Shown here piece by piece: positions 12,217 through 46,165 of a DNA stretch of 48,091 nucleotides; positions within the stretch are counted from its first letter, which is position 1, and each line of letters begins with the position of its first letter. Both the position numbers and the translations under genes were made by a program. The stretch is from NCBI GenBank assembly GCA_003990765.1, contig RBNJ01000039.1, forward strand, positions 1 to 48,091. Direction: 5' to 3'. The DNA is from Jimgerdemannia flammicorona. Its lineage: Eukaryota. The notes beneath the pieces are model-generated. The model made no database searches. It was given only the letters and a program-made list of their open reading frames with translations, and had not been told where the DNA came from.

Positions 12217-13065
12217 GTTGGTGGAGAGAGCATACAAAATTTGTGGCCCTCTACTAGCAGTAAGGGAGCTCTAAGCTATAAGTGTCTGAGATGGGGGAGT
12301 TGGCAGAGAGGGGAGTAGGCAGAGGGAGCACACAAAATTTGCGGCCCTCTATCAGCAGTAGAGATAGCCCCAAGCTGTCAGTGCCTGGGTCAGCTCCAAG
12401 CTGTCAGTGCCTAGGTCAGTGGGCAGGATCAGTTGGTAGAGTTGGTGGGCACAGAGTTAGTGGAGGAAGCATGCAAAATTTGCAACCCTCTGCTGGCAGC
12501 AAGAGATAGCCCTAAGCTACTGTCTGGGATGGGTGGGGCAGGCAGAGGGAGCATATAAAATTTACAGTACCAGTAGTCTGTATCTGGACCAGGGGTTGGC
12601 AGAGTTGGCAGAGAGAGCACACAAAATTTGTAGCCCTCTACCAGTAGTATAGGAGTAGCCCCAAGCCACCAAGAAGTCCAAGTCTAGGTTGGAGAGTGCT
12701 TCTGGCAATCAGAGGGTACTTCTGGCAGTTCGAGGGTATTTCTGGCAGTCAGAGGGCATTTCTGGCAGTTGGAGGGTACTTCTGGCAATTGAAGTCTACC
12801 ACAGATTCAGGCTCTATCACTAGTTCAGGTCCCATGGGCACTCTGGTCCTGTACTGCAGCACTGTACCAGCAGTACTACAAGAGTAGAGCCAAGGGGCTG
12901 GTAGGGCCTGATATAATAGCTAAACTAGTGCTACAGAAGAGGTGCCCAGCTGCCAGCCCAACCTATATAAAATAACTGCTAAATCCTTATAAAAGATTGC
13001 TTAATCCTTATAAAAGATTGCCTAACCCTTACAAAAGATTGCCTAACCCTTACAAAAACTGCTCC
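12217..13065 (+). repeat. Internal hAT repeat region: hairpin repeats (GAGRGAGCRYRCAAAATTTGYRGCCCTC) plus two ~20-bp tandem arrays
   Basis: Core motif at ~10630, 12230, 12328, 12468, 12551 and 12617; (GAGGGTACTTCTGGCAGTT)x5 at ~12690-12795; (TGCCTAACCCTTACAAAAGAT)x4-5 at ~12960-13060. Equivalent region at 27960-28710. Confidence 0.85.
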
Positions 13066-15058: not shown

Positions 15059-16184
15059 TGTAGGGTAAAAAATGAGTAGACTGGACCAATATATGATTAA
15101 GGGCTGCTGTTTTGTTTGCTCATAATGTGGCAGAAAAGAAAAAAGAATAAAGAAAAAGAACAAAGAAAAAATAAAAGAAGAGAGAGAACAAAAGAAAGGG
15201 TGATGTCACCAAAGTATAGCAGAAAAAAAAAACAAGAGTAAAAATGAACAAAAGAAAGAGTGATGTTACCAAAGATTTCAATCTAGATGGATCAATCTGA
15301 ATAGATCAATCTAAATGGATTAATCCAGATAGATCAATCTAGATCAATCTGGATCAATCCAGATCAGATCACAAGACCAATCTGAGTTGATTCGAATCTA
15401 TCATATGACAAATCTGAATTGAATCTCATCTGGATCAACTCTATCCATTTGGAGCACTAAGTATTTAAATACTTGACTACTGACTTTATTTTAAAAGAAA
15501 TAAGAGAAGTATTTATACAAAATATAATTCAATAGTTACTAAGTTATAAAACTAAATATAAATTCCAATAACCAAATAAATAAAGTACTTGAATATAGAA
15601 AACTTCAGGTTGTAAGTCCAAATTTGAGTATCTGTACAATTGGTTGTATAAGGTCAAAATGCTAGGATAATTTCTGAGTTACATAAGATCAAAATACTAG
15701 AAGAATTCCAACAATTATATAAAGAACTTAGAGCAGAATATTCAGAATCCTAGAGACTTCATCTTCATCACTATTATCAAGGCTAGAGGTCAGAGACAGG
15801 ATGTCTTCAAAGGAAATGAGATTAGTGAATATTTTGTCTATTTACATATTTTGTAAATATCATGTATGTCAATTAGCAGGATGACATTATCACCAATGAT
15901 ATCATTACTGATGATATTATTACATTCAGTAGTGGCAGAGAGAACAAGAAGATCAGAGGCTCTCCAATCTATGAGGTTCTCCTCTACAAAGTAGGAGACA
16001 AAGGTGAGATCTTGAGGAGATCTAACTTGAATACTAGGGCCTTAGAATACTGAGATTAATTCTTGCAGGAATTGATCTGGATTGTTCTAGAGGATGAGAT
16101 TTTAGAACTCTTCTATCTTATCACTTTTGAGAGTGATAGTGAATTAAACTTCTGTGGCCACTATGGCCTCTAGTACATCTGTAC

Positions 16185-16924
16185 TGTAATAGAGTAAATG
16201 GTCAAGATACAATATATAATGAGCAATCATGTGACCTGGTGATGATGTCACAATTGAGCATAATATACAACAAATATAATAAATATAATAAATAATATAA
16301 ATAATATAAATAATGCAAATAAAATAATATTTAGTTTATCTCCAGCAATTAGTACTATAGCAATCAGTACTATAGCAATCAGTACTATAGCAATACTGAT
16401 TATTACTTAGCAATAGAGGTCACAATCATAAACCTCATCATAGTTATCAAATTAATTACTTATACTTAGTCAGAAATTACAAACTAACTTATGTAAATAC
16501 CCCTCAGTTTCTATCTGAAATAAAGTAGTTTTAGTTCAGTTCTTGATATAAGAATCAAGTTTCTCTCTACATATACATTCTCCTGAGTTTTAGTAATGAC
16601 ACCTAAGTGACTCTAGTATTTCTGACTAAACTCCAGAAGTCTAACTAACTTCTGCCAGAACTGAGACTAGTATATAAATCTCAAAGACTTAAGTAAACCT
16701 ATTGAACCTGAATTCCAATATGAATTCAGTCTGTGCATAGCAAAGAACAAGTTCCTTATAACTAAGATTGATAAGAAGAGTACTGCTGCTATAACTACTT
16801 TCAAGTAAGTACTTTCTTAAACTGAAGACTTCTTACTACACTTTGTATACTAAGTCTTTAAGTAATATCTTATTTCCCTAAATATCTAAAGGATAAGAGA
16901 GAGATAGAATTAAGGGTTATTATA
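16185..16924 (+). mobile_element. 5' LTR, family A, heavily mutated, followed by PBS
   Basis: TGTAATAG...TTATTATA termini; PBS at 16928-16939; downstream sequence matches the reverse complement of 1-74. Confidence 0.9.
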
Positions 16925-16939
16925 ACTTGGTAGTAGTAG

Positions 16940-18280
16940 TTTACTGAGCCAAGACAGCATTAAGAACATATTCCTGAGAAGTTGGAATAAGACTAATCTT
17001 AGACAGGAGTAACCCCTAGAACCAACTGTAGATTCTCTAGAAACAAACCCCCAAATAAGAGCCAGACAAGCTCTTGCCATTAGGACCAAGTGGTACCAGA
17101 AAACCACAGATATAGAGACCCACAACCTTGTAATTGACCAAGCTTACAAGGATCTATACCAGACCTTTAGGACTTTCCACCCATATAGTCAGCTGCTGAA
17201 GGTTCTATATACTTCTCTGCAGCCATATTAGAACCACTAGGACTCCAGAATCTACTGCTATAGCTATCTAGGAATTTCTAAATTATATCTCACCACCTAT
17301 AGTAAGAGAAGTAGCTGCAGAGTAGATTGCATCTGACAGATATCATCATACTTTCATCAGGACCTCCCTCTACTATAAACTAGTTGTATACTATGTCTCT
17401 GCCATAACAAGATATGAGAATGAGCAAGCAGGCCACCCATCTCCTACTGCTGATCAAGAAGCAGGTCTATCTACCTAGCCAGAATCTGATATCCTCTTTG
17501 AAGGGCCTAGTCAGTATAAGGATACACTATCTTATCAGAGAAGAGAGTTAGATGAAGACTCTATAGAATACCAGTCTGATGATAGCCAATAAGGAAAAGC
17601 AGGTCTAGAAATTTACCAAGAACTCACAGGTCAAGAAGACCAGACCCCAGAACCAATCCAGCCACCTACACAGAGGTTTGGCCTACCATCTCTTACAGAA
17701 CTCTTTGATCTAATATCTAGGAATCAAGTAACCTCAACTACAACCACACCAGACAGAACAATCTTCAGGAGAATCTACCCCTATATGTCTATTACTAATA
17801 GGTAGATGTTAATATTATAGTACTAACTATCTAGCTAGCTATACTGGCAGAGATAGTAGAATGAATTGCTAAATAGAACAAACTAACCAAGATCTTATAA
17901 ATTCCCACATTCAGTAGAAAAAACAGTGACATTGAAATCTTCATCAATGCAGTTGATATAGGTTACTGAGTAAATCAATAGAATGATAACTAAGTACAGG
18001 AATGCTCACCAATAACCAAGACAACACTCTTCAATAGTTATTTGTCACATCAGCAGTACAAGTGGAAACAGTAGCTATATTCTTCACTGAAATAGTAGCT
18101 GAATTCTGGTATATCTTGAAAGAACATCCAGTAATCTGGGAAGACTGCCCTCAAGTTGCAGGCCAAACACCTGGCAACACCAGACCAGATTAGAATGATT
18201 ATACAGTAGACCCAGAACTCAAGGCCCTACTATTGATCAAATTCCAAAATACAGCCTATATATAAGAAACTTAGAACAAA
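16940..18280 (+). pseudogene. Degenerate gag region of the LTR-A retrotransposon (truncated)
   Basis: Directly follows the PBS. An IPTFS(G)KNSDIEIFINAVDIGY...N(Q/W)-like retrotransposon gag motif lies at ~17900-18000; many stops. Confidence 0.6.
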
Positions 18281-24847: not shown

Positions 24848-27800
24848 TAGTGCTCTAAATGAGTCAATTCAAATCAAATCTGGATTCAATTTGTCACATA
24901 ACAGTTTGATCTGAATCTCAAATCCAAAGCTATCCAAATCAATTCAGATTAATCTGAATTGCTCCATCTGAATTGTCCTATCTGAATCATCCATCCAAAC
25001 TATTCCAACTGAATTACTCAATCCAAATCACTCAATCTAAATTACTCAATCTGAATCCTTCAATTTGAATCCTCTAATTCAAATCCTCTAATTCAAATCC
25101 TTCAATCTGAATCCTCATCTGAATCCTTCAACTGAATCCTCCAATCCAAATCCTCCATATAACTCATATGCTGGACATGTCCATATATACAATACATACA
25201 CATATAAACATATATATATATATAAACACACATGTTGACAGATCAGTCTTCAATAGTTCACAGTACCAATGATGCTTCAAGTCAAACATCTCTGATAGTT
25301 TCACATCTTTTATACAATCCTTGCTCAAAAATCTGACAACATTGTACTAAGATAGGAGATGATGTTGTTTGTAATTATTGTAGATAAAAAATTAAGATAC
25401 ACCTATTGATATAACTGACACTTTTTATTTGACACACACATGATACTGTTTCATTCACCCCCATAAACTGCACTAGCCAGAAGTTCAAAATGCTTGGTGG
25501 TATGACTTTGAATATATATTGACATATAAAAGACAAGCACTCTGACAAAATCAAAAAAAATATAAAGACAAATAAAATTGATATCTAAGCTATAGTAGGT
25601 ACATTTATCCAATTGTCTGACTATTTCTGTATCAATAACTCTATTTAATCAAAAATATTTAGCCATACTCTTTGGCAGAATTTTGAAATTGGCTCATTTG
25701 CTAGATTGTATATACAGACCAGCCATTCACAATTATCAAGAGTGATCAATTATATAGTATCTTTGGCCTTCTCAAGTATGATTTATATTTGCCAAGTACC
25801 AATACTATTTGCAAAGATGTCCTGGAGGCCTATAGGAAGAAGCATGATAATCTCTGTCAAATACTTCAGGTAAAATAAGAGTAGTATCATGACCTTTGCA
25901 AGCTGAATTATATATATATTTATAAAGAGCTCACCAATTTAACCTTACATTCAATAAGCAGAATTCAGCAGATAAAATTTTGTTTACAATCAACACATAG
26001 GTATCCCCCAATGTAATTTCATTTCTGAGTATTACTAGTTATTAGATTGACCTCAATTGGTAGCTTAAATCTCTTACTCTTGACTTTGTCAAACTTGCTG
26101 GCCCTCATTCTGAAGACAACATTACAGATGCTTTTATTAGTTATATCCAGGAGCTTGAGATCACAACCAAGGTAAAAAAGGAGGACTTGCCATTAGGTTG
26201 ATATTTTGAAAGAGATTCTAAAACAAAACAGATTTTATTGGTTATTTATTTTTATATAAATTTGCTGACTGAATATTTCAAGTACAGATTTTGGCTATTA
26301 CAATAGATAATACTACAAACAACTCAATATTTTTCCAAGTTTTAGTAGCTAGCCTCAAATAGAAAAATATAGTCTTCAGTACAGAAAGCTGCTGTGTATG
26401 ATGCCAGGCCTATATACTAAACCTCACTGTTCAGGACTATCTTATGTATATAGACAAAACATCTAAGAGAGGAGGAGCCCTGAGTATAATTTCCAAAGCT
26501 ATACAAACTGGTTATATCAGTTCAATCATCTCTACAATAATGAGACAAATTTGCTACATATATAGTATAAGACAATCAGTTTAGTTCCAAAAGTGCTTAT
26601 ATTGGATATCTATATGCATTAGAACTCACCATTTGCAATAATCCAGCATATACTGAAGTTTGCTATAGTATGTGTTCTTTTTTTCTTTGGTTGGCTGAAG
26701 TAACTTATTTCAGATGATTGAAGATTTATTTTTTTAAAAAAAAAAATAAAAAAAGCCAATAGATTCAATAGTGACTGCTGATAAGAAAATATGAGATAAG
26801 GCTTTAGGTGAAAGTAAGTGGAATGTACTTAGGAATGTTGTCAGAGTTTTAGAAGTAAGTAGTGATTACTCTAGCTCTATACTCATTTTGTCTGCCTCTG
26901 TACAATGTAACACCTCACTATATATAACTGCTAGTATTTTAATGATTGTATGAAAGATTTAGTCAAAAAAACAACTCTGACAATAAGCTCTACAATACCA
27001 GTATATAACCTTCTGATTGACTGGCTAGAGGATAAGCTTGAGGCTGGAGGGTTATAGTGATTTATGGTTAAGCCTGGATCAGAGAGATGCTATAGAGATT
27101 GCTCTAAGTAAGCTCAGAAAATACTACTCCAAAACAGATACTACTGTATACTCAATCAATATAGGTATGTTGATGTTGATATGTGGCCCTTGCCCCTTCC
27201 AAAACAGAGAAACCCCTGCAAAAACTTACTCTCTTTTCTTCAAACAGTGCTGGACCCATACTTAAAGCTATAATATTATAAAGATTAGAGCTGAGAGCAG
27301 CACTTTATTGAGAGAACCAAGCAGGCTATAATTGAAGTATATCAGAAAAACTATATGCTGCTATAAGGTTCTAGTCAAAGTCTAGACGAATATGCTGAGA
27401 GATTCCTCTTGTCCCACATTTACTTCAGCAGAAAGAGGAAGAGGGAGTCATTAGTGAAAGAGCTGCCATCAATAGATGAACTTATCATTTACCTTACCAG
27501 CAACCATATGATCCTGCTGGAGGGCATGGAGGTGCTCAACTGGTAGAAGGTGGGTTGTCAGGTGAGTATTGGACCAATTTAACCCACCAATCTAACCACT
27601 ACTCTACCCACTGGGGTGTGTAGCTACATCAAATGAACTTCCCCAGCCTATATGGTATGACTTGGGACTACCTGGCAATTTCTGCCTCCAGCACTCCCAT
27701 CAAGTGAGTGTTCTCAGATGGAGTAAACCTTATTGCCCCAAAGAGGTATGTGCTGAATACTGAGATAATCCAGGCATGTATATATCTGAAGTCTTGGTGG

Positions 27801-30800
27801 AACTCAGGCCACTAAAATTTGGTGAGTCCTGGGAGTTTATAGATAAGTTGGTTGGTCTTGTGGAATATTTAATACCTTTCAAAAATAATAAAAAGGGAAA
27901 AAAACCCTGAGAACTTGGCCTGAAGTTTGTGGCCCAAGTGGAGCAGTGGTTGGCAGGATTGGTAGCAGTAGTGGAGGGAGTGTGCAAAATTTATGGCCCT
28001 CCACCAGCAACAAGGGGCAGACCCAAGCTGTCAGTGCTCAGGTTAGTGGGCAGGTCAGTGGATGGGTGTGGGTCAGCAGAAAGAGTGTGCAAAATTTGCA
28101 GCCCTCCACTAGCAATAAGAAGCAGCTCCAAGCCACAAGTATCTGGGTTGGGGGAGGGTTGGCAGAGGGGGGGTAGGCAGAGAGAGCATGCAAAATTTGT
28201 GGCCCTCCACTGACAGCAAGAGATAGCCCCAAACTGCAAGTGTCTGAGATGGATGGGGCAGGTAGAGAGAGTATGCAAAATTTGCAGCCCTCTGTCAGCA
28301 GCATAGAGGTAGCCCCAAGCTGCCAAGAAGTCTGAGTCTGGGTCAGAGGGTGCTTCTAGTAGTTAGAGGGTGCTTCTGGTGATTGGAGGGTGCTTCTGAC
28401 AGTTGGAGGATATTTTTGGTAGTTGAAGGGTATTTCTGGCAGTCAAAGTCCACTACAGATTCAGACCCCATTGCTGGTTTGGGTCCCATAGACACCCTGG
28501 CCCTATGCCATAGTATTGCACTAGTGGTACTACAGAGTAGAGCCAAGGAGCTGGTAGGGCTCTGCATAATGGCTAAACTAGTGCTACAGAAGAGGTGTCT
28601 GGCCCAACCCCCTATAAAAGACTACTTAACCTGTATAAAATAACTACCCAACCCTCACAAAAGATTGCCTAACCTTCATGAAAGATTGTCTAACTCTCAT
28701 AAAAACTGCTCCACCCACTGGTCCCAGGCCTTGATGAGCCTATCATCCATTGTGAGTATGATGACTGTTATGTCTGAGCTCTCCTTAAAGGTGATGGTGC
28801 CATAGTGATTATGTGGTTAGAATAGGACAGCTGTGTTGACCACAAATGGGACTCTGAAACTATAGGTGAGGTTGTACCAGACTCTGCCACTAACCTCTCA
28901 GGTTGGGCTCTTCCTTTCTGGGATGTAAAACATTACTAGGGTGATATTATTATCTGTATATAGACAGAGAAACATTGTATCTGATATATCCTGATGTGAC
29001 ATAAGCATATAGTTGGGTGAACCCTTGGCCCAGGACCTTATACTGCCAGGCTGTACTGGTGGATGCCTGCCCTTGGTCCAGCCCTGGGAGCCCCAGCTTG
29101 GAAACCTGTCAAAACAGATGGCAACTAGTCAGTCCTTTTTGTATATGGGGGGGCAGAAACCCCCCAGACCACAGAAACCCCCTGGGCTGCAGCACTCAAA
29201 AAAAGTAGAGCTCCTCACCTCATATAGTATGCTAAATTGTGTCAAGAATATACATATAGCTGCACTGAGATCACTACTAAGCTGGCCTACTGTATGCTTT
29301 ACCAATCTGCTCAAAGAACTCCAGATTATAGTTACTATTGCCATATAGGCCATATTATGCTTACATATAGTTTGCTCTTTGATGGTACTTCTAAAGTTCT
29401 GGTAGAGGTACAGAATCTTGTGCATCTCTGGAATTATATCAAAAAGAGTATGTTAGCAAAGAGTGTGATTTATCTGGAGAGGAGTAAAAAAAAGAGAGAT
29501 GAGTGGGGGGGATTTTGGAACTCCAGAACCCACCCTTCACCAGTGTTGCAGTATACCCAATTCCCATCCAAACCCCCTCTTCTTGCTTTTTTCATCCCCT
29601 CTTTTCTACCACCTAGTATTTGATGCAATCCTTTCAAATATTGTTGATGTGGCAGCAAAGCTTATTACCATAGAGGTTTCTTATCACCATTATAACCACC
29701 TCTCTGTATTTGTTATGTAATAATGATATAGTTCTCTTTATCATTGGTTACTTCTGCTGGCCAATAGATCCCTTGGTCAAGAATAATTGGCTCTGATTCG
29801 AATATAGACCCCCAAGCCTTAATAACAATACTGGTACTGCTCATACTGAATATCTTGCCCTCAAATTTCTCTATTTGATCAGATACTGGACATGATTGAA
29901 CTCAAGTAACTTTGAACTCTCCTTTCCAATAGAACTGAGTCCTGATCTGAGGGACTGAGATAAGTATACAGACAGGTTATATGCAGATGGGTTGTATATA
30001 GGCAAGTTGTATACAGATAGGTTGTGTGCAGATATGGGTGTTTTTTAGAGGGAGACTATGTAAAAAATGAAGTTAAATAAAACACAGAGATGGGTATTTC
30101 AGAAAAAGAGTATGAGTGAGTGAGTGAGTGAGCTACATGCTAATAAGTTATATGCTGATGAGTTGTACAAGTTGTATGAGTTATACAAGATTGCTCACAA
30201 AGGCTTACTTCTGTTCTTTTTAAGACCTCTGCTATGTGATGCATTGACTCAATAGCTCAGTCACCAAAGGCATATCCTACAATATCCACCAGCCTTTCTT
30301 TATCTTGACCAGATATTGTGAATAAAGTTGGCAGATCTCACTGTAGAGCTGTAGACCCTAAGAAAAGTATGAGGTGAATTAGATCATGCTGGAGAAATTT
30401 AAATAAATACAAGTAAACAAGTGGTAGCCAAGTGAGCAATCTACATCTACTATCAGCTGCTCCAAAAAGGCTGCCACATACATAGCTGTAAGGTCTGTGA
30501 ATTCTGAGATCTGAAGGACCACCATGAGTTGTTGCCAGAATTCTCCCATTGCCACTACCATTGCCACCACCATCACTATCACTACTGCTATTATCACTAC
30601 TGTTGCCCCTTTGGCTCTTAATGAGTAGCTTGTATGCTGTCCATATGAGAAAAAAAATCTAACATTGTCAGTAGAGAGTGCATTTCCACCTTGAATACTC
30701 TCTCTTTTAATGATCATTGCAGGGTAAAAAATGAGTAGACTGGACCAATATACAAATTAAGGGCTGCTGTTTTGTTTGCTCATGATGTAGCAGAAAAGAA

Positions 30801-32114
30801 CAAAGAAAAAGAACAAAGACTAGATAAAAGAAGAGAGGGAACAAAAGGAAAGGGTAATATTACTAAAGTATAGCAAGAAAAAAAAACAAGAGTAAAATAA
30901 ACAAAAGAAAGAGTGATGTTACCAAAGATTTCAATCTGGATGGATCAATCTGGATAGATCAATCTAGATGGATCAATCTGGATGGATCAATTTGGATCAA
31001 TCTGGATCAATCTGGATCAGATCACAAGACCAATCTGAGTTGATTTGAATCTATCACATGATGAATCGAGTGAGTAAGTTGTATGCTAATGAGTTATATG
31101 AGTTGCATAAGATTACTTATAAAGACTTGCTTCTATTTCTTTTGAGATCTCTGCCACACAATATATTGACTCAATAGCTCAGTCACCAAAGACATATCCT
31201 GTAATGTCCACCAGCCTTTCTTTATCTTGACCAGATGTTGCAAATAAAGTTGGCAGATTTTGTCATAGAGCTGTGAACTCTAAGAAAAGCATAAGGTGAA
31301 TTCAATCATACTAAGGGAAATTAAAAAAGTAAATACAAGTAAACAAGTGACAGTAGAATAAGTGATCTACATCTACTATTAGCTGCTCTAAAAAGGCCAC
31401 CACATATATAGCTGTGAGATCTGTGAATTCTAAGGTCTGAAGGGCCACTATAAGTTATTATCAGAATTCTCTCTCATCTCTCCCATCACTACTACTATCA
31501 CCATCACTACTACCATTACCACTGCTATCACTCCTTTGGCTCTCAATGAGTAGCTTGTATGCTGCCTATATGAGAAAGAATCTAACATTATCAGTAGAAA
31601 GTACATTTCCATCTTAAATACTACTCTCTCTTTTGATGATTATTACAGGGTAAAAAAAATGAGTAGACTGGACCAATATATAATTAAGAGCTACTGTTTT
31701 GTTTGCTTGTGATACAGTAGAAAAGAAAAAAAACAAAAAAAAAGAACAAAGAAAGAATAAAAGAAGAGAAGAAACAAAAGAAAGAGTGATGTCACCAAAG
31801 TGCAGCAGGAAAAAAAATAGAGTGAAAAATAAATAAAAGAAAGGATGATGTCACCAAAGTGTGGTAGGAAAAAAAATAGAGTAAAAAATGAACAAAAGAA
31901 AGAGTGATGTCACCAAAGTGCAGTAGGAAAAAAAATAGAGTAAAAAATGAACAAAAGAAAGGATGATATCATCAAAGATTTTATATGATCAATCTGGATC
32001 AATCTGGATCAATCTGGATCAGATCATGAGATCAATCCAAGTTGATTTGAATTCATCACATGATGAATCTAAATCAAATCTCATCTGGATCAATTTCATC
32101 TATTTGGAGCACTA
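24848..32114 (+). mobile_element. hAT transposon copy 2 with duplicated right arm
   Basis: Left TIR TAGTGCTCTAAATGAG at 24848; collinear with copy 1 (transposase relic ~25260-27815); right arm present twice (~30120-31067, truncated before the TIR, and 31068-32114, ending GGAGCACTA); no matching TSD. Confidence 0.92.
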
Positions 32115-33412: not shown

Positions 33413-33966
33413 ACTATCAAGATAATATCTGCCATAACTTCAATAGCTATGTATCACTAGTCTAATATCTGACTAATCTACTATAATTACTCTTCTATCT
33501 ATCTATGATAATCATCTTCTCTCTTATTCTGATACTATCTAAAAAACAGTCACCTACATCAGAACTATGCTTGCTAGGAAGCTCACCAAAGCTCAGAGGC
33601 CTCTACTATAGATATTGATAACCTGCAGGTAATCTATACTGGGACTTGATGCCCAGGATCAGCTGACTCTCTATATAGCCCATAATATATCATAACAATA
33701 TCTTATTGATGATGGCAAAGGAAGAAGGTGTCACACCAAAACAGGTTCACCCCAGATATAGCCAAAGATACCAGAAACTATAAAAAAGTAGAAAAAGTAC
33801 CAATCTGATACCAATAAAGGGACAACTCATCACTATTGCCTCCCTCCCACTATCCTGCAACAGGTACAGCAAACCAACCTGAGGTAGAGGGAGTAAAAGT
33901 TGTAAAAAAGGAACTCAGAAGGTTGTCTACCAAAATCTTGTGACCAGTATGGTAGTGGAGAAAGAT
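33413..33966 (+). repeat. Dispersed repeat (unclassified TE fragment) with an inverted copy at ~45700-46450
   Basis: Example: GTTGTCTACCAAAATCTTGTGACC (33922) is the reverse complement, with transitions, of AGTTATAAGATTTTGGTAGACAAT (45730). The continuation at 46496-46570 matches 18441-18515. Confidence 0.75.
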
Positions 33967-34183
33967 CGTATATCTAAGGTTTCAATATGGAATACCTAAC
34001 CAGTTCTGTGCTTCGTGTTTCCGTGCTTCTGTTGTACACGTTATACATAAATTGGAAATTTGAATCATTAGGGCACATTCATTAAGATAAGCAGTCCGTG
34101 TACTACGCACTTCCGCTTGGCTACTTTGTAAATCATAGTCGTCTTCACATTGACATCCTTCATCTACAACAGTACATTCAGTT

Positions 34184-35883
34184 ATGGAACAGAAGAACAA
34201 ACCAGGTATTAGCTTCTTGGTCAAAGATGTGGATTCGTTTCCCAAGAAGTCAAGCCTGGACCGATGGTCATTTTGTTCGCTAACTCTGTGAAACTGACCT
34301 CGTTCCAAGCAGCCAACCCTGAATCTGGAGGCAGTATGCCGACCAACGTCGCGGAGACAGCTCCTTTTCAAGTAGTCAAGACGGAGTCGGACGTCAGTTT
34401 TTTGGCCAATGCCGTGGAGACGGTTCCTTTCGGGGAAGTCGTGCCATATTCGGATCTTACTCAACTTGCCAGTACGTGCGTTTGGTCTGATAGAGATGAG
34501 CTTTACAATAGTCTGTGACATATATTCTTGTTAAAATCATTTTTCGGACAAAAGCACCCTCATTTGATTTAATTCTGTGTTAATATCAGTTTACATGTTT
34601 CCTTTATCTAGTTTCAGAAAAGCAAATCGGTGATAAGGGTGTCCCCATCTTGACTGATACTCTTAAGAACACATCCCTGGCAGAATTGAGTCTAAGAGGT
34701 CAGTTATAATTGTTTGAAGTGTTGTTTACAGCTGTGTGATAAGTTCCAACCCAGAACCTATGTCTGTTTCTTCATCCATCCCCTGTTCACCAACAGAGAT
34801 CGATTTTAGCGCCGAGAGGGCACATGTACTGGCCGAGGTTCTGAAGAAGAACACGGCTCTAAGAGCGCTGCATTTCGATTGTATGTTTTAAACATGTGAG
34901 ATGTTGATTGCAGCTATGTGATGAGTTCCCATTGGTAACATGTATGTGTTTGCCCATCCATCCTCTGTTCATCTTCAGACAACAACATCAGCGGTGAGGG
35001 AGCACTCGTACTGGCTGAGTTTCTGAAGCAGAACACTACCTTAACTACGCTGCATCTCAACGGTATGTTTGAACTCTGTGGGCTGTTGGTTGCAGCTGTG
35101 AATGAGTTCGAGGCGTGTTTACTCATCTATCCTTTATTCATCCTTAGTGAGCGGAATTGGCGCCAAGGGAGCACTTGCGCTGGCCGAGTCTCTGAAACAG
35201 AACACGACCCTAACTGCGCTGATTCTCGAATGTATGTTTGGACTGTGCGAACTGTTGTTTGCAGCTATGTGCTGAATTTTAACTCACGACCTACGCGTGC
35301 TTACTCACTTATCTTTAGCGGACCTAATTGGTGCTGAGGGAGCACTCGCACTGGCCATGTCTCTGAAACAGAACACGACCCTGACTTCGCTGAGTCTCCG
35401 AGGTATATCTGAGCTGTGTGACATGGTGTTTGCTGCTGTTTGATGAGTTCCAAATCACCCTGGTATTTTTCTCACCCACTTCCTCTTCATCAGATAATCA
35501 ATTTGGTGCCGAGGGAGCGCGCGCACTGGCCGAGGCTCTGAAGCGGAACACCTCCTTGACTACACTGGACATCATAAGTACGATGTCTTCACCAAATAAC
35601 CAAATTGGTGCCGAGGGAGCACTCGCGCTGGCCGAGTGTCTGGAACAAAATACGACCCTGGCTGCGCTTAATCTCAATGGTATGGTTGAAATCTGTAAAC
35701 TGTTTCTTGCAATTATGTGATGGATTCCAACTGACGACTTGAGTGTGTTTGCTCATCCATCTCCCATTCATTCATCTTCAGGTAATGATCTTGGCGATAA
35801 CGGAGCACTTGTGCTGGCCAAGTCTCTGAAGCAAAACACGACCCTGACTGTACTAAATCTCCAGGGTATTTTTGAACTTTGTG

Positions 35884-35948
<65 letters not shown>

Positions 35949-38900
35949 AGATGTGTAATGGGTTCCAACTCACTACTTGGGTGTTTGCTCTTTCATCCCA
36001 TGAACACCTTTAGGAAACCATATTACTGGCAAGGGAGTACTGGCACTGGCAGAGGCTCTGAAACAGAACACAACTCTAACTATGCTGAATCTCCAAGGTA
36101 TGTTTGAACTATGCGAACTGTTGTTTCTAGTTATGCAATGAGTGCTAAACTCACGACGTTTGATCTTCCATTCCCCCTTCATCTTTAGGGAACGGCGTTG
36201 GCGACGAGGGAGCACTCGCACTGGCGGAAGCTCTGAAGAGGAACACAGCCCTAAAGACGCTGGATCTCTGGTGTATGTTGAAGCTATGCGAACGGTTATT
36301 TTCAGTTGTGTGATTGATTCCAACTCATGACCTTTGCGTGTTTACTCGCCCATCTTTAGCGAACGGAATTGGCACCAACGGAGCACTCGCACTGGCTGAG
36401 TCTCTGACACAGAACACGACTTTGACTGCACTAATTCTGGAATGTACGTTTGAACTGTGTGAACTGTTGTTTGCAGCTGTGTGACGAGTTCCTACTCGCG
36501 CGACTTTTATATTTTACTCATTCATCTCCTGTTCATCTTCAGCCAACAAAATCGGCGATGAAGGAACGCGCGCATTGGCCGAGTCTCTGAAGCAGAACAC
36601 GACCCTGACTGAGCTGAATATCGATTGTAAGTTTGAACTGTGCAAACTGTTGTTTGCGGTCTCATGGGTTCCAACTCACATCCTGTGTGTGGCTTCTCCC
36701 CTGTTTATCTCCAGTCAACAAAATCGGCGATGCGGGATCGCGCGCACTGGCCGAATCTCTGAAGCAGAACACCACTCTAACTATGCTGAATCTAATAGGT
36801 ATTATTGAACTATGTGAACTGTTGTTTTCAACTTTGTGATGAGTTCTAATCCCGTGTTTATTCATCGATCCCCTGTTCATATTCAGGCAACGACATCAGT
36901 GACGTGGGAGTGGGTGCACTGGCAGAGTCTCTAAATCAGAACACGACCCTGACTGCGCTGAAGCTCCGTAGTATGTTTGACCTATGTTAAATGTTGTTTT
37001 CGGCTGTGTGATGAGTTCCAACTCACCTATGTATTCATCACTTGTTCATCTTCAGAACGCATCGATTATGTAGGAGGCATCGGCGATGTGGGAGTGCGCG
37101 TACTGGCCGAGTCTCTAAAGCGAAACACGACCCTGACTGAACTTTACATCGGCGGTATGTTGGAACTGTGATTACATATCTGTGACAAATTCCAACTCAC
37201 CAGTGCATGTTTGTTCATCCATCCCCTGTTCACCTTTAGGTGACGAAATTGGTACTGAGGGAGCACTCGCACTGGCCGAGTCTCTGAAGCAGAATGCTAC
37301 CTTAACTACGCTGAATCTCTGCTTCAGTATGTTTTGAAGTTTTTGAAGCGCTAGCTGCATCTGTGTGATGAGTTCTGACCAGCGGCTTATTCGTGTTTGC
37401 TTACTCATCCTCTGTTCATCTTTAGGTAACAAAATCGGAGCTGAGGGAGGGCGCGCGCTGGCCGAGTCTCTGAAGCAGAACACCACCCTGACTGCACTGA
37501 GGCTTTGTGGTATGGTTTAACCTTATGAAATATTTGCATTATGTGATGGCGTATTTGCTCATCCATACCTGTCCTTTATTAGGTAGCGAAATTGGTACCG
37601 AGGGAGCAATCGCACTGGCCGAGTCTCTGAAGCAGAACACAACTCTGACTGCGTTGGATCTTAGCCGTATGTTTGAACTTGGTGAAATGTTTTTGTAACT
37701 GTATGGTGGTTCCAACTGACAAGCCATTCATATTTTTCATATACCTTGTTCATATTTAGAGAATAAGGTTGGTGACGATGGAGTAAGTGCATTGGCCGAG
37801 TCTCTGAGGCAGAACACCACCCTGACCTCACTGTATCTTATCTGTATGTTTTTACTGTGTGAACTGTTGTTTGCAGCTATGCAATGTATTCCAACATATA
37901 CACTTACCCTCCCTCATCCCTATTCACCTTCAGCAAACGAGATTGGTGACAAGGGCGCACGCATTCTGATCCAGTCTCTGAAGCAGAACGCCACATTGAC
38001 CACGCTAAACCTAGAAAGTCAGTATGATTCTGTTTTTACTACATGACGTGTTTTATGTTTGTCTCTTGTCAGTTTTTGCTCATGTGCTATTGAAACGTAT
38101 TAGGGAATGCAATCAACGACCCGATGGTATGTCTATTAGGCAACGCTCTGAAGCGAAACACCACTCTGACCAAGCTATATGTCCAACGTATGTAGGATCC
38201 GTGCGAACTGTTACTTTGAGCCTCATTATGTAATTTAGCTCATTACCTTTTTTATGTTTGCTAGGTTATGAAGGAACAGCTTCAAGCCTATCACTTTGTT
38301 TTCAGTACAAGCCAGCCAAAAATTCTCTTGACCAGATCCGGGAAATTCTCAAAAGCGCTGACTACAATTTTATGTCAAAACTTAAGGGCAGCTTTCCCAG
38401 TGATGACAAAAAACTTTTGGAATGCTTAAGCATGCTCCAAATTGAGGAAATTGCTCCTTGTATGGTTTGGATACCTTATAATGAATTTATACAGATCGAA
38501 CCATTGGGTCAAGGTGGATTTGCCACTGTATACAAAGCCAAAGTAAATTGTGTTGGAAAGAAAAGAACTGTCGCATTGAAGATGTTGAATGGAAGTGATC
38601 TTGTTTTAGATCAATTGCAAAATGAGGTATGTATAAGTTATTCTGTTACAGCTACAACGTCATTTTCACATTTACTGATATTGGATCATCTGTGCTGCAT
38701 TTTGTCATCGCCAGCTACTACTCAACACCTATCTTCGGCTCAGCAATCGTCGAGTGGCAACACCAGCAGTCATTGGACTATCAAAGAGCGACGTGGGGAC
38801 TTATATCTTGGTAATGGAGTATGCTAGTGGTGGCAACCTTGCACAACTCCTTACCCAGTATCCGCCAAAATCGTGGTCGCTTGTATGGCAACTTGCTGCA

Positions 38901-39509
38901 GAAATTACTCGACGATTGCAAATGATTCATAAAGCTGGCTTGATTCACAACGACTTGCACCCCGGAAACATCGTGTTCATTACTGGGACCAACCCCATGA
39001 TCATTGACGTCGGCATAGGCCAAACAGTAGGGTATTTCCGTGAACGTGATGGCTCATATGGTCGAATGGAATACCTTCCACCGGAAGCTATCGACCTGGA
39101 TGAACCTTTCACCCAAAAATCTGACATATACTGCCTTGGAACAATTCTATGGAGGCTTACGACAAATTATTGCCCCCGTGGAACAGCAAAAAATCCGCCC
39201 GGTGCCGCTGCTTCTGCTGGATTGCGTGAAGAACCGATTCCCGGCACGCCAATCGAATATTTGAATATCTACAAGAGATGCTGGCATTCTATCTCCGAAA
39301 TGCGACCGACCATCGAGGAAGTGTTGAGAGATCTTGAAGATATAGAGATGGAGATCGCAAATGAGGATTGGCTAGATGATGAAATTGCAAATCATCTGGA
39401 GAGAATCCAAGGCGAGATGGCTGAAGAGGCTGATTTCGAGTTTTTCGGTGGTTCCGCCAGTCGTTATCACACAAATACCGAGCTAGAAAGACTTACCACT
39501 TCTGCATGA
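34184..39509 (+). CDS. Cytoplasmic LRR (RI-like, 21 repeats) - TKL-type protein kinase, ~1045 aa, ~24 exons
   Basis: Hand-built exons: 34184-34205, 34310-34471; LRR exons 34618-34698, 34797-34880, 34979-35062, 35148-35231, 35319-35402, 35494-35679 (two repeats), 35782-35865, 36014-36097, 36189-36272, 36360-36443, 36543-36626, 36715-36798, 36887-36970, 37056-37154, 37240-37326, 37426-37509, 37583-37666, 37760-37843, 37934-38017, 38104-38187; then 38265-38626 and 38715-39509. Total 3138 nt, open frame. LRR consensus xNxIGxEGAxALAESLKQNTTLTxLxLx. Kinase motifs GQGGFATV, VALK, HNDLHPGNI, DVG, YLPPE, SDIYCLG. The first exon is the least certain. Confidence 0.92.
35886..35946 (+). repeat. Poly(T) tract, 61 nt, inside an LRR intron
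   Basis: Direct count. It replaces the CTGTTGTTT seen at the same position in sister introns. Confidence 0.9.
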
Positions 39510-39904
39510 GCAATATTTATATATTCAGGCAAGTTTCGCCATATATCCAAATGATCAGATATCTGGGCGAGCAGTGGTATTTCCGCCCGAATGTCGTTTT
39601 GTTTTCTAATTCTTATGCTCCTTATTTCAACATAGTGCGACGAGATTTGGAGCGATGTGACTGGTACAGATGTGATAGGTTTACGATTGACGATGGACTT
39701 GTTCAGATAGGAATGGGAGATGTATTGTTAGGGGAAATGTAGCTGGTTGGAGGTATTCAATTTCAAGTTACGCACGCTGTATTCACATCGAGTCCAAATA
39801 AAGTAGTATGTCAAAATAAATTTATTTGAGATAAAATGGTATCTGATAAAGCACATAATATATTGTCGCGTCGTTCTACATCATCGGTTCTCCACCGGGT
39901 AAAC

Positions 39905-40720
39905 TTACAGCAAGTTCAAGTATTTCTGCCAGCTCCTTGTTGGCGGATTCGTGGTCGAGGTGGCGATGTGGAAGGGACGCGTGTTCCACTTAAACCCCGA
40001 TATCTGGCAACGTGAATATTTCCCTTCTCTATTCGTCCACACTTCGAGAAGATGATCGTGCGAGGGAGAGTAAGCGCTTGGTTGCTTTCGAGTCGATTGA
40101 CCCCAAATCGACCGTCCTCAAGTTGAGGCATGAACTTGAACTCGGTTTTGAGCCGTATGGCGAATCGCAGTAACCAGACTTGTCGCATATTCAATCTTGA
40201 AGAGATCAGCGGGGAATGGTGACGTTAGTTAGGTATAGCGATATTGAGATGAATGCATTTAATACCAAAGCGTTTGAGGAATTTTTGGGCTATCTGACGT
40301 GTTTGAGGGTGCCAGCAAGATGTGGTGAAACTTCCGCCTCATCGATATATAAATCCAAAATGAGTAAGTAAGCGTAAATATATGTCGTGTCGCTCTTCAA
40401 GTTTTACGAGATGAAGACCTGAACCTGGTGGCGGCGTGGTAAAACCTTTTGGACTGCGACGTGAATCTGGCGACCAATATTAAGGTAGACGATCAGTGAG
40501 TAGCAGTGGTGTATGATAACTTTGTGCTTAAAAAAAAAAAATTCTGATACTTACGGAAAATGTTGTTTCCTATTTCTCCGAGTAAACACGGCTGACTCTC
40601 TAAGCGTTCCTCCGGTTGATGGCGATATTATTTTCTTAAGACGAGATCACGAAGCTGGAAAACTGAAGATCATTCGGTCTATATTTCGAGCGATGGAAAC
40701 GACAATCTGCCAGGTGCTGG
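39905..40720 (-). pseudogene. Possible frameshifted F-box/LRR-like gene relic
   Basis: Minus-strand splice signals (GTAAG at ~39908 and ~40554, CTAAC at ~40228). Fragments RMIFSF, CLNLRTVDL and IIFSKCGRIEK occur in different frames with stops. Confidence 0.25.
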
Positions 40721-41137: not shown

Positions 41138-42967
41138 TCAACTCAGCGATTTTTCGAGATTCTCGCTACCTAAGAGTTAGTACTTGATATTTAGTGGTGA
41201 TAAAAATTATTATTCCGAGGGGTATAATGCTTCACCCACCCAAAGCCTCCATCTCCACCTCCACCCCCGTCCTGACCATGCCCCTCCTCTCCTCCTCTTT
41301 CCTCTCTCTCTCGCACCGACACATCTCCTTCCTCGCCCTTATCACACCCTGCTCCTCCCCTTCCCTTTCCCATCTCTCACACACCTCACAACAAAACACC
41401 TTCCCGTCCGCATACCTCCCCGCACGACACTCATCACAACATAGCACTAGCAGATGACAACTGGCGCCCGCGCACTTCGTATATCGGTCTTCGCGTGTGA
41501 CGGCACAGATCTGGCACCAGGATATAATGACACCCGCGTCATCCCCATTCTCCCACTCACCCTTACCCTTTTCATCGAGACCAAGTGACTGCCGCGCATC
41601 GAAGATGTAGTTCCTGCCGCGCCAGAGCGAGTCGATGATTGCTGAGGATCCGGTAGCCGACACAGGGTCGGACTGCAACTGCTGCTGCTCCTTGACCCAC
41701 TCTAGGTAGTTGTGGATTCCACCGTCAAGCATCAGGATCTTGGTGCGGAGGGCACCTTCGGTGTGAGAGAGGGATTGGCGGAGGTAGGCGGTGGCCTTTT
41801 CGCAACGGATGCCGCTGATTAGGGGAGAGAAGTTTTTGTGGTGGCGATGAGATCAGACGCACGATATAAACATCTCAAGAATAATGTATACCAGCCGAAA
41901 GAAAGAAAGGCAGCAAAAAAAAAAAAAAAAAAAACCTTGACAATCTCCTTATCATCTCCACTCACCCGGTACAATACGCCAGCACGGTTTTCCCCTCCCA
42001 CGCGGCCCTATTTCTTTCCACGAAATCCGGGAACGCGCCGAACCTCCGAATCGGTGGACATAGGGCTCCATCAAACCTACCAATTCTGCTCTCATAATAA
42101 TTTCTCGTATCTAGGCACACATACTCGCCCGGATTTTCCCTCGCCTTCTTCAGCAATCCAAAAAATTCCGCAGGCGATACCTTCCCGTCTGCGCCTTCCT
42201 TGACTCTGAGGCCTGGCACACCTAGAGGACAAATTTCGTCGACGACGCGGACGGATAGTGATGGGAAGACGTGGGCGCACCCCGATGAAGGTTTGAAGAA
42301 GAGATGGCGACGGCGTGTGAAGGCAGTATCGGGATCCTCTGCGGAGAGACGGCCGGCCGCGAGAACAGGATGCCGTGAGATCCAGTCAACGTAGGAGGCG
42401 ATGGATGGGTTGATACCGGCAAGGGTCGCGTTGATGCCCTCGGCCGCGATGCGGATCTTGCCTGTGAGGCCCAGGCGCGTGCACAGGTCGTGATGGTGCG
42501 CGGCGAAGAGAAGTGGGTCGGAGACGGGCACGTATTTGTAGAAGAGGATCACGGTCGAAAAAGTTGGATCGCATGCGCAGGTGAGGGTGACGGGGTCGGA
42601 GGAGCCCTGGAGATGTTAGATTTGACGTGTTATTGATGCCCACATTGGAACTCATACAATCAGAGCTCCTAACCCGACTACAAACCTTCTCCGCTCTCCT
42701 TCTCCTAAACCTCTCAACCAGCTCTTCCTCCCCCTTGCTCCTCCCCTCCCCTTTGAGTCGCCTCAGAAACACCTCGCGCATCTCGTCCAACTCAATCTGG
42801 TGCTGGGAATGGACGTGCCGGGAGACGCTCTCCAACGTCACGTACACCTTGCCGCAGCAGACCCAGCGTCCTGCTTCGGAGGCGTCGTTCGACTGATGAC
42901 GGGCCTCAAGGAAGGTGTTGATGGCCTGGCGCTTCGCGGCGCGTTCGCGGGCCGATGGCTTAGGCAT
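41138..42967 (-). CDS. TSTD2: Rhodanese-domain protein, TSTD2/TrhO(YceA)-like
   Basis: Exons 42967-42686, 42606-41966, 41814-41240 and a probable short last exon 41169-41138 (otherwise stop at 41232). Motifs WxCC...RHVHSQH, ILFYKY, GKIRIAAEGINAT, DTRNYYESRIGRF, YCTGGIRCEK (formed across a splice junction), LDGGIHNY, NYIFDAR and a Cys-rich C-terminus. Confidence 0.92.
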
Positions 42968-43163
42968 GGCGTGAATGTCAAAGCCGCAGAATGTGATGTG
43001 TTGTCACAGCCGAAAAGACAGTCACGCTTCCCTCACTTCCCCAATTCCGCAAAACCTGAATGCCTTTATTTCACCAAGTCTTTCTGAAATTTTTTATCCT
43101 TTTACGGAATCACACATTGTCAAAAATTCCCGAAACTATACAGATAAGTTTCGTCTCAACCGT

Positions 43164-44135
43164 TTACTTAGCGACACCTGTATTGTGGAGAAAATTTTGT
43201 TAAACACATGTCAAACACACGTAGAGCATCCCAAAATCGAGATCGTGGGACCTACCAATGACACCGCAGGCCAAGCGGTCGCCAGCGTTACCGGTGGTAA
43301 TGGAGAGTTGGTCGCCCTTCAGACCAAGGTCGTCCTCGTCGGCGTGGATAACGACGGTACGGCTGTGGGTGGTTGAAGTGTTAATGGTTAATTATGTTAG
43401 ATAAACATAGTTTGAGCAACTGTTAAAAAAACAGAGGCAGGTCTTCACGATGGCCAGAAACTGTACGATGTCCTTTTCTAACTACTCAGCCAATTCCCCT
43501 TTACAAACATTCCTGGCGACAAAGTAATACTTTGACTCCGCGTTCATTTTTCTTAATCTATATTTTCACCATGAAACATTCGTGCCCATCCCTCGTCCTG
43601 ATTGCCACCACCTACCCAATGACGGAGTAGGGACCGATCAACTTGACCTGATTGTCGGTTTTGGTGAATTCGGCGACACCATCGTCATTGGCAAAAACGT
43701 TGCCGAGGTCACCGGTGTGGCGAATGTCTTTATCCGGGGCCCCGTGATTTTTGCCGTGGGGATTGTAGTGGGCGCCGGCGGAGACACAACCTAGTACGAG
43801 TGAGGAAAAAGGACGTGTGAGAAGGGGTTGAAGTCGGAAGGAGTGGGGCGTATATGCAACGCGTTTGTACGTGTTGCACATTACAGGAAATGCGCCAAAA
43901 ACGGATACCCACGAGTCAAAGGAGCGAAACGTGTCAAACCCCTAACCCCTACACCCACACATTACATACCATTGGTGTTATCGCCAAACTCGTGAATGTG
44001 GAATCCGTGGTTCCCTTTCTTGAGGCCGGTGATGGTGCCCTTGATGACAGTTGAGGCGGACTCGTTCTCCTGGGAAAGGAGGATGGTACCGGTGACGGAG
44101 GGGCCACCCTTGAGAACGGCGACAGCATTGACCAT
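43164..44135 (-). CDS. SOD1: Cu/Zn superoxide dismutase (153 aa, 4 exons)
   Basis: Exons 44135-43970, 43790-43616, 43362-43256 and 43177-43164 (462 nt). [46 protein letters not shown] and [13 protein letters not shown]; all metal ligands present. Confidence 0.98.
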
Positions 44136-44559
44136 GTTTGCTATGTAGAATGTGAATTTGGGTTCAGAAGCACTGAGTAGAGAATACAGAGAACGGGAGG
44201 TGCTGGGTAAGGGGTGAGGAAGGTGAATATTTATTCAGAGAACTGACAGGGGTTCCCACATGTCGTCACGCAGACACGGGACGGGAGACGGCGTCAACCC
44301 CCTTGCAGAATTGATCAGCATGGCGTTTTTTTTTTTTTTTAGCTTATGGTTTTGGTTTTTGGGTTTTGTTTTTGTAGCGAAGCGAAGCACTGGTACCATG
44401 GGGGAACGAGGGATGACGCGTACACAATGAAGGTTGAGAGATGAAACTGGGTGAATCATGGTAGACCGGAATCGAAATTATCCGGCCTCTTGTCAAATAC
44501 GTCAAAACCAATCTGTGATTTATCTAGAAGAATATTTTGTATAGCCAATAGCTTGATAG

Positions 44560-45640: not shown

Positions 45641-46165
45641 CTTAGTAGTAGTAGTAAAGTTATATCTTACCTTATTAAGAAACCTCATATAAATATAGAT
45701 ATTCTTTCCTCTTTCTTTACTACTATATTAGTTATAAGATTTTGGTAGACAATCTATTAAGTTCTTTTTTCACAACTTTTACCCTCTCTATCTTAGATTA
45801 ATTTACTATATCTATTATAGAATAGTAGGAGAGAGATAATGGTTACCTCTTTATTAATAATAAATTAGTACCTTTTTTACTTTTTTATAGTTTCTGATAT
45901 CTCTAGCTATATCTAGAATATACTTATTTTGGTACAGTACCTTTTTTCTTTTACTATTATTATTAAGATATTATTGTGATATATTATAAGCTATATAGAG
46001 AGTTGGACAACCTTAGATATCAAGTACTAGTATAGATTATCTATAAGTTGTCAGTATCTATAGTAGAGCTCTCTGAGCTTTAGTAAGCTTTCTGATAAGT
46101 ATAGTTCTAATATAGATAACTGTTTTTTTAGATAGTATCAGAATAGGAGAAAAAATGACTATCAC

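Follow-up and report, generated by a model that had tools for sequence, protein, structure and literature searches.

Arrays of leucine-rich repeats (LRRs) with one repeat per exon are already known from brown algae, where they have been proposed as diversity generators; the excerpts of two reports on Ectocarpus and Saccharina described LRR-ROCO genes with one LRR per exon, exon shuffling, splice variants, and positive selection on the concave face (PMC3341825, PMC11378527). The nwd/het-e NLRs (NOD-like receptors; NOD, nucleotide-binding oligomerization domain) of Podospora, as excerpted, combine WD, ANK, or TPR repeats that are ~85% identical in protein with a NACHT/NB-ARC core and no LRRs, and a change of repeat number through recombination has been proposed for them (PMC4986451). 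No LRRs were reported in fungal NLRs in the available portions of two papers (PMC4986451, PMC5658179), and the corresponding part of a survey of LRR-kinase proteins found nearly none in fungi, namely four in one chytrid and, in ascomycetes, five that lack introns and probably came from bacteria (PMC2939053). Here, we analyzed a 48,091-nt stretch of the genome of Jimgerdemannia flammicorona (contig RBNJ01000039.1 of assembly GCA_003990765.1; hereafter, the window), a fungus of the Endogonales (Mucoromycotina), in which a gene of 24 exons on the forward strand (34184-39509) encoded an LRR array followed by a kinase. The findings suggested that this is probably an ordinary, constitutively spliced gene for an LRR-kinase that senses a ligand or partner. 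Architecturally, the gene is a well-formed example of a class already known, and a diversity-generating system was not demonstrated.

The gene model was built by reading 33800-40500 and searching for AG...GT-bounded, stop-free, LRR-like segments, which yielded one consistent model. From an ATG at 34184 to a TGA ending at 39509, the coding sequence comprised 3144 nt (1047 aa) in a single open frame, with GT..AG borders at 23 of 23 introns; the joining of 24 exons into one frame of that length is far beyond chance. The protein was laid out as a 62-aa N-terminus, 21 LRRs of the ribonuclease inhibitor (RI) type, and a tyrosine kinase-like (TKL) kinase. The LRR exons (exons 3-22) covered exactly 34612-38187, the span that a first-pass annotation had proposed, and its count of 21 units, 18 of them of 84 nt (28 codons), was recovered. 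It had placed the remaining units at 81-99 nt; they measured 87, 99, and 87 nt, and none was 81 nt. Its description of one LRR per exon applied to 19 of the 21 units, with units 6 and 7 sharing a 186-nt exon, so that sixteen of the 20 LRR exons were 84 nt long and two were 87 nt, the other two measuring 99 and 186 nt. As it had also stated, every LRR exon had phase-1 borders, the first two bases finishing a codon and the last base starting the next. Each was also a multiple of 3 in length; all 20 are therefore symmetric, and any subset keeps the reading frame. The introns between LRR exons (n = 19) likewise matched its description, at 73-102 nt in 18 cases and 148 nt, with a run of 61 T, in one.

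Transcript evidence came from two small runs of one coded organism (X1 and X2), guessed to be RNA, whose assembled contigs carried no intron sequence; the mapping took segments at at least 90% identity, and contigs broke in the repeats. Consecutive exons were joined at 37843>37934, 38017>38105, and 38187>38265 among the 15 joints listed of 109, and also at 34467>34611, with contiguity at 38624>38713. The other 12 of the 15 lacked GT..AG ends, several with unmatched letters between their sides, and came from the hundreds of paralogous LRR contigs. Exact-match contigs stopped at the edges of exons 1 and 2; contigs with one difference covered the 99-nt exon. The contigs bearing the junctions came from a close paralogue, an allele, or another strain; of the 33 differences shown for the kinase, 16 were synonymous and 17 non-synonymous. 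The gene is real, intact, and spliced, and at least partly backed by transcripts, and splicing between consecutive exons was seen in its close relatives.

The gene resembled the brown-algal LRR-ROCO genes, as excerpted, in its long tandem array of small symmetric one-LRR exons, its predicted cytoplasmic signaling domain, and its variable concave residues. It differed from them in repeat length (RI-type LRRs of 28 residues, 84 nt, and phase 1, against 24 residues, 72 nt, and phase 2), in its output (a TKL kinase rather than a ROC-COR GTPase), and in kingdom. No ROC GTPase or COR was found, as only a linker of ~85 residues separated the last LRR from the kinase and Pfam matched the kinase alone. 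The excerpts also described relic and antisense LRR exons in the long introns of brown-algal loci and clusters of paralogues and pseudogenes, whereas the 73-148-nt introns of the window gene held no relic, inactivated, or antisense LRR exons, and by tblastn the rest of the 48-kb window contained no further LRR or kinase copy. A literature search, excerpts of PMC8778642 included, returned nothing on this gene, on an Endogonales LRR-kinase family, or on fungal one-LRR-per-exon arrays; the Endogonaceae genome paper and Table S8 of PMC2939053 lay outside that search.

The unit alignment gave a 28-residue RI-type consensus, xNxIGxxGaxALAESLKQNTTLTxLxLx, in which the leucines of columns 27, 30, and 32, the asparagine of column 7, and the isoleucine of column 9 were conserved. 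The exon holding two LRRs matched LRR_6 in Pfam (PF13516; score 25.8 bits, curated cut-off 23.4 bits, E 8.8e-6), and a single 27-aa LRR exon scored slightly under the cut-off at 22.2 bits. Mean pairwise identity between repeats was 56% in protein and 66% in DNA; it reached 76% in the scaffold segment ALAESLKQNTTLT (residues 11-23) and fell to 13% at the five concave x positions, bearing out the earlier description of a nearly invariant scaffold with variable x positions. Entropy was highest at columns 33, 8, 6, 31, and 29, which in RI-type LRRs line the concave face, and zero at the structural leucine and asparagine positions. A conserved scaffold whose x positions vary is found in LRR proteins in general, and it does not support the inference of a diversity generator. 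The nearest matches of the LRR exon were "RNI-like" proteins from Mortierellomycotina and NLRC3 of animals, and NLRC3 was also among the best named matches of the two-LRR exon. The repeats share their class (LRR_6) with vertebrate RI and NLRC3. Vertebrate genes of this type have a repeat-per-exon, phase-symmetric structure, and RI itself has alternating 28- and 29-residue repeats, two per exon. The repeats of the window gene differed from those of RI in being uniformly of 28 residues and one per exon, with neither a NACHT domain nor an RNase-inhibitor context; the exceptions, of 29, 33, and 29 residues, showed no RI-like A/B alternation.

The introns indicated how the array arose. Introns 3-20 were mutually alignable over their full length, and their mean pairwise identity was 0.677 against 0.664 for the exons in a multiple alignment (0.67 against 0.66 in pairwise global alignment); third codon positions of the exons were 0.57 identical between units. 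Introns 3-20 are therefore homologous copies. Because they were as similar to one another as the exons, the array grew by tandem duplication of a unit of ~172 nt, and Tandem Repeats Finder (TRF) returned a period of 172 nt (84 + 88) over 36513-37018. On this comparison, the unit copied again and again in tandem was one 84-nt exon together with its intron, which accounts for the separate phase-1 exon of nearly every repeat and for the likeness of the introns; the gene structure shows with textbook clarity how a solenoid forms in this way. Unit duplication also explains more simply why every repeat has its intron at the same position and in the same phase, and it accounts for the in-frame symmetry, since an internal exon, once duplicated, persists only when its phases are symmetric. 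Phase symmetry is therefore no evidence for cassette use, and the hint that the first-pass annotation had drawn from it did not hold. The conserved blocks of the introns coincided with an extended donor, a CTNAC-like block that is probably the branch site, and a 3' end rich in pyrimidines. The 18 nt at 35578-35595, between units 6 and 7, probably remain from an intron that underwent internal deletion, with ~70 nt lost and six residues added, since they begin with GTACG like an intron donor; they would represent an intron loss through genomic deletion captured in place. Within the window, intron sequence was confined to the LRR-kinase gene (0 of 54 matches lay outside it), and introner-like mobile introns were rejected for the window on that ground.

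Regulated skipping of the phase-1 LRR exons, by which one gene could yield many receptor isoforms, was considered very improbable. The symmetry of 20 of 20 LRR exons, any subset of which remains in frame, would permit it, and brown-algal one-LRR-exon ROCO genes have up to nine annotated splice variants in the excerpt available (PMC11378527). However, that symmetry was accounted for by unit duplication, and all GT..AG joints among the 15 of 109 listed connected consecutive exons. The splice signals were strong and uniform: all 20 donors after LRR exons began with GT, 11 of them with GTATGT, all acceptors were YAG, and retention of 19 of the 20 introns after LRR exons would bring a stop or a frameshift. 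The introns were short, at 73-148 nt, and exon skipping was described as comparatively low in fungi in the part of the source available (PMC6142364). The exon borders cut the LxxLxLxxN motif between LxLx and xNxI, so that each structural repeat has its concave strand coded by two adjacent exons; skipping would be structurally tolerated there, but would give merely a shorter solenoid. Docking/selector or hairpin RNA structures in the introns were rejected, as 0 consensus pairs were predicted across 17 introns.

The kinase was coded by two exons, the last of which matched PK_Tyr_Ser-Thr (5.3e-21) and Pkinase (3.8e-20) in Pfam, with the N-lobe in the preceding exon. Its closest solved chains were RIPK4 (1.1e-17), RIPK1, TAK1, and DLK, which we take to be members of the TKL group and which matched at least as well as FGFR, EGFR, and HCK; judged by nearest solved chains, this supports a TKL-type kinase. 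The glycine loop, the VALK lysine, the helix-C glutamate (QNE), the HND aspartate, the asparagine of HNDLHPGN, and the DVG aspartate were all kept, and the HND aspartate and DVG lined up with the RIPK4 catalytic loop and DFG, respectively. The intact TKL-type kinase of the first-pass annotation was thereby supported, with the qualification that it is non-RD (HND, without an arginine before the catalytic aspartate), with DVG replacing DFG and PPE replacing APE, motifs that are typical of its subfamily. Among 50 relatives, HxDLHPGN with D[VI]G was the norm, 37 were non-RD, and 43 retained the catalytic aspartate. The closest named relatives were from Endogone sp. (48%), Gigaspora, and Rhizophagus, and the subfamily appears to be specific to Mucoromycota.

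These odd motifs raised a further explanation, namely that the gene is a decaying or otherwise defunct copy, a recently expanded pseudogene-in-waiting embedded in repeats, or that its kinase is a pseudokinase serving as a scaffold. Besides the non-canonical HND, DVG, and PPE, its surroundings fit such a view, as the gene adjoins 34 kb of AT-rich, repeat-rich DNA without recognizable genes, and the kinase-region contigs of both runs all carried variant letters rather than those of the window. We nevertheless regard decay as highly unlikely, because the frame was open over 24 exons and 23 canonical introns, exact-match contigs existed for exons 1-2, and the odd motifs were subfamily-wide, with the catalytic aspartate in 43 of 50 members. 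In addition, scaffold codons had a ratio of non-synonymous to synonymous divergence (dN/dS) of 0.19-0.25 between repeats and are under purifying selection.

Members of the Mucoromycota HxDLHPGN subfamily shared with the window gene the kinase and a conserved pre-kinase linker (W/L-IPY-x-EF), and differed from it in their partners, which were Peptidase_C14 (P0002, from Endogone), MLKL_N (P0299), a second kinase domain, or none. Within the subfamily, an LRR partner was seen in 0 of 36 matches and 0 of 54 relatives at at least 35% identity, many of them fragments. Peptidase_C14 is caspase-like, and MLKL_N is a four-helix domain. The sister kinases that carry them would fit a modular signaling or cell-death toolkit. 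Other proteins of this clade, which includes P0003, had two to ten kinase domains each. A metagenome scan with the kinase exon gave four short loci that were 29-39% identical; none was an orthologue or informative on repeat number. Two of them, from soil (L001 and L002), had the same intron position inside the kinase as the window gene. In a third, also from soil (L003, 1021-1428), a related kinase was followed by an intron-free RI-type LRR stretch of ~136 aa, either in the opposite order or as a neighboring gene.

LRR_6 and a kinase occurred together in nine of the 120 LRR matches listed. An RI-type LRR_6 array at the N-terminus with PK_Tyr_Ser-Thr at the C-terminus, the same order as in the window gene, was seen in five of these proteins: P0040, P0055 (Euglena), P0058, and P0078 and P0082 of Hyaloraphidium curvatum. 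A look by eye at P0040 and P0078 revealed no obvious transmembrane (TM) stretch. These proteins differed from the window gene in that the kinase, where read, was canonical (HRD in P0040) and outside the HxDLHPGN / D[VI]G subfamily, and some added a U-box or coiled coil. Among the LRR matches, P0037, P0062, and P0104, one of them named as from Mortierella alpina, joined LRR_6 arrays to NACHT (PF05729), once with a Death domain, and run counter to the general statement that fungal NLRs are without LRRs.

The LRR-kinase is predicted to be a soluble cytoplasmic protein. A Kyte-Doolittle hydropathy scan, which is not a dedicated predictor, found no signal peptide or TM helix, in agreement with the earlier observation; its top 19-aa window scored 1.41 and lay within the LRRs, the N-terminus was polar, and the interval between LRRs and kinase had no hydrophobic stretch. 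By this simple scan, the signal peptide, extracellular LRRs, and single TM helix of a plant/oomycete-type LRR receptor-like kinase (RLK) were absent. NACHT and NB-ARC had no match in the scanned exons or in 87 other open reading frames (ORFs) of the window, and only 62 residues preceded the LRRs. The first-pass annotation had likened the protein to NLRs and RLKs; it belongs to neither by membership, although comparing it to a sensor coupled to a kinase is still reasonable.

Selection was assessed by Nei-Gojobori counts over 20 aligned units of one protein, so that repeats were compared, not alleles or orthologues. The five concave codons had a dN of 1.16, against a scaffold dS of 0.64-0.74 and an intron divergence (K) of 0.39-0.43. 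Relative to the consensus, with a star phylogeny assumed, the proportion of non-synonymous differences (pN) at concave codons was 0.447, compared with a synonymous proportion (pS) of 0.305 in the scaffold (Fisher p 5e-4) and an intron divergence of 0.203 (p 1e-14). Within the same five concave codons, dN/dS was 0.75-0.96. The test involved five codons, non-independent comparisons, and concave sites near saturation, and both neutral proxies, introns that are short and crowded with splice signals and a scaffold with codon bias, are probably constrained or homogenized. The fast concave divergence is suggestive of diversifying selection and not proof of it; the non-synonymous excess expected at exposed positions was seen between repeats. 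The surface is heterogeneous within one protein, and the between-repeat test says nothing on differences between individuals.

This divergence bears on the possibility that the gene belongs to a large, fast-evolving, exon-modular LRR receptor family, in which unequal crossing-over, gene conversion, and exon shuffling among nearly identical exon-intron units of one paralogue or of several would, under diversifying selection, keep building new repeat numbers, orders, and concave surfaces into alleles and paralogues. Such a germline process would be compatible with constitutive splicing and, by analogy, would resemble brown-algal LRR-ROCO genes and fungal NLR repeats; we consider it possible, though unlikely. 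Contigs matching the LRR array at at least 90% identity numbered 592 and 422 in the two probable RNA runs and lay on scaffold-coding parts, with summed word depth of up to ~42,000 over 36513-36713. Their abundance indicates what may be a very large expressed LRR family in the runs' organism, and the depth peaks over scaffold stretches would fit many expressed paralogues. Many joints had their unmatched letters exactly at the variable segment. The excess of concave dN and pN over the scaffold and intron values, the discordance between exon and intron similarity, the intron-deletion scar together with the variation in unit length, and the flanking dispersed repeats would all accord with a germline process, for which precedents exist in the excerpted literature (PMC3341825, PMC11378527, PMC4986451). 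On the other side, the contig pattern arose partly by construction, as only segments at at least 90% identity were mapped, and the selection test had the limits given above, with a within-codon dN/dS below 1. Relic or antisense LRR exons and a paralogue within the window were absent, unlike in the brown-algal loci.

The repeats themselves also spoke against frequent ongoing homogenization, which was not evident at 56% identity in protein and 66% in DNA, compared with the ~85% of the excerpted Podospora NLRs (PMC4986451). The window gene is like those NLRs in having variable positions on a conserved repeat scaffold and, by analogy, in being a candidate cytoplasmic non-self sensor, and unlike them in having no NOD domain. 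Podospora NLR repeats are coded without per-repeat introns.

An ordinary, constitutively spliced LRR-kinase gene remained the probable explanation when these lines were weighed together. The 21-repeat RI-type LRR horseshoe stands N-terminal to the non-RD TKL kinase, and the concave face of the solenoid would bind a protein or a small ligand. On binding, the attached kinase would change in activity, oligomeric state, or location and would then phosphorylate downstream targets. The differences between repeats would form one long, fixed, composite binding surface, and any diversity would arise in the germline over evolutionary time, as units and paralogues duplicate, are lost, and diverge, not by exon mixing at the RNA level. 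Several observations weighed against this account. The divergence of the concave codons is more in keeping with a receptor in an arms race than with a housekeeping scaffold. Unit similarities based on exons and on introns were nearly uncorrelated (r 0.02-0.21), a misfit with a simple duplication tree that hints at recombination or conversion between units; the history of the units is either star-like or blurred by exchange among them. The contigs bearing junctions were ~4-10% different from the window, the middle of the array was spanned by no contig, and 15 of 109 joints and 24 of ~1229 pieces were listed. The RNA evidence is also indirect, coming from contigs only and from runs merely guessed to be RNA.

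The LRR-kinase of the window is rich in introns and clearly of eukaryotic origin, and it comes from a Mucoromycotina lineage that forms mycorrhizas. Its LRRs belong with those of animal NLRC3 and RI, and its kinase is nearest to animal RIPK and TAK1, which are kinases of immune or cell-death signaling. If the protein senses biotic partners, it would offer an entry to how early-diverging, plant-associated fungi perceive bacteria, hosts, and other fungi. A far-reaching version, in which the Endogonales would possess a large expressed family of exon-modular RI-type LRR receptors, with nearly identical exon-intron cassettes reshuffled in the germline among repeats and paralogues and perhaps also skipped in splicing, and with a diversified concave recognition surface that drives a RIPK-like non-RD kinase, itself a sister of kinases joined to caspase-like and MLKL_N-like death modules, appeared rather doubtful. 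If it were true, it would amount to innate immunity or symbiont recognition based on LRRs, in a kingdom for which LRR receptors have long been said to be missing, and to a convergent twin of the brown-algal ROCO system.

Coordinates of the exons and other features of the LRR-kinase gene are collected in Table 1.

Table 1. Features of the LRR-kinase gene, in window positions.
Feature	Position	Strand	Evidence
Exon 1, start codon (first ATG of the transcribed stretch)	34184..34205	+	Gene model; exact-match X2 contig 34116-34205 ending at donor
Exon 2, N-terminal region	34310..34471	+	Gene model; exact or 1-difference contigs 34308-34471, 34310-34470
LRR exon 1, unit 1, degenerate first repeat, 87 nt	34612..34698	+	Joined to exon 2 in ~90-92% identical transcript
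LRR exon 2, unit 2, 84 nt	34797..34880	+	Segment search, gene model
LRR exon 3, unit 3, 84 nt	34979..35062	+	Segment search, gene model
LRR exon 4, unit 4, 84 nt	35148..35231	+	Segment search, gene model
LRR exon 5, unit 5, 84 nt	35319..35402	+	Segment search, gene model
Fused LRR exon, units 6 + 7, 84 + 18 + 84 = 186 nt	35494..35679	+	Gap-free X1 and X2 contigs 35492-35678; Pfam LRR_6 E 8.8e-6
18-nt in-frame remnant between units 6 and 7, begins GTACG	35578..35595	+	Sequence, unit split
LRR exon, unit 8, 84 nt	35782..35865	+	Segment search, gene model
148-nt intron with run of 61 T (35886-35946)	35866..36013	+	Sequence
LRR exon, unit 9, 84 nt	36014..36097	+	Segment search, gene model
LRR exon, unit 10, 84 nt	36189..36272	+	Segment search, gene model
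LRR exon, unit 11, 84 nt	36360..36443	+	Segment search, gene model
LRR exon, unit 12, 84 nt	36543..36626	+	Segment search, gene model; TRF 172-nt period over 36513-37018
LRR exon, unit 13, 84 nt	36715..36798	+	Segment search, gene model
LRR exon, unit 14, 84 nt	36887..36970	+	Segment search, gene model
LRR exon, unit 15, 99 nt, 5 additional codons at start	37056..37154	+	1-difference contigs 37056-37153
LRR exon, unit 16, 87 nt	37240..37326	+	Segment search, alignment
LRR exon, unit 17, 84 nt	37426..37509	+	Segment search, gene model
LRR exon, unit 18, 84 nt	37583..37666	+	Segment search, gene model
LRR exon, unit 19, 84 nt	37760..37843	+	Joint 37843>37934 in X1 and X2
LRR exon, unit 20, 84 nt	37934..38017	+	Joint 38017>38105 in X1 and X2
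LRR exon, unit 21, 84 nt, most divergent, cap-like	38104..38187	+	Joint 38187>38265 in X1 and X2
Linker and kinase N-lobe exon (GQGGFA glycine loop, VALK Lys, helix-C Glu)	38265..38626	+	Continuous with next exon in contigs
Kinase C-lobe exon (HNDLHPGN, DVG, PPE), acidic tail, stop	38715..39509	+	Pfam PK_Tyr_Ser-Thr 5.3e-21

The 53-aa translation of exon 2 held no recognizable domain in Pfam (0 families). An antisense stop-free frame of 182 aa (33985-34530, - strand) lay over exons 1-2; it had no Pfam match and is probably due to chance. Within the 61-T run, sequencing records appeared to be cut, so its true length is uncertain.

Two intron-split housekeeping genes followed the LRR-kinase gene on the - strand, a TSTD2/rhodanese-like gene at 41235-43003 (TSTD2_N, UPF0176_N, Rhodanese_C) and a Cu/Zn superoxide dismutase gene at 43615-44234. 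The first-pass annotation had placed the gene in a region rich in transposable elements; large dispersed repeats did flank it, but none of the 87 ORFs of at least 70 aa outside the gene matched a transposon domain in Pfam, and the downstream genes were housekeeping ones. In the 34 kb upstream, 24848-31067 resembled 7552-15414 at 82-83%, and further dispersed repeats at 4705-5421, 16417-17000, and 1-846 were likewise without a transposon protein domain; overall identity among repeats was 75-85%. Directly upstream of the LRR-kinase gene, 33506-33965 had an inverted copy at 45710-46164, and this family brackets the LRR-kinase gene and the two housekeeping genes in inverted orientation.

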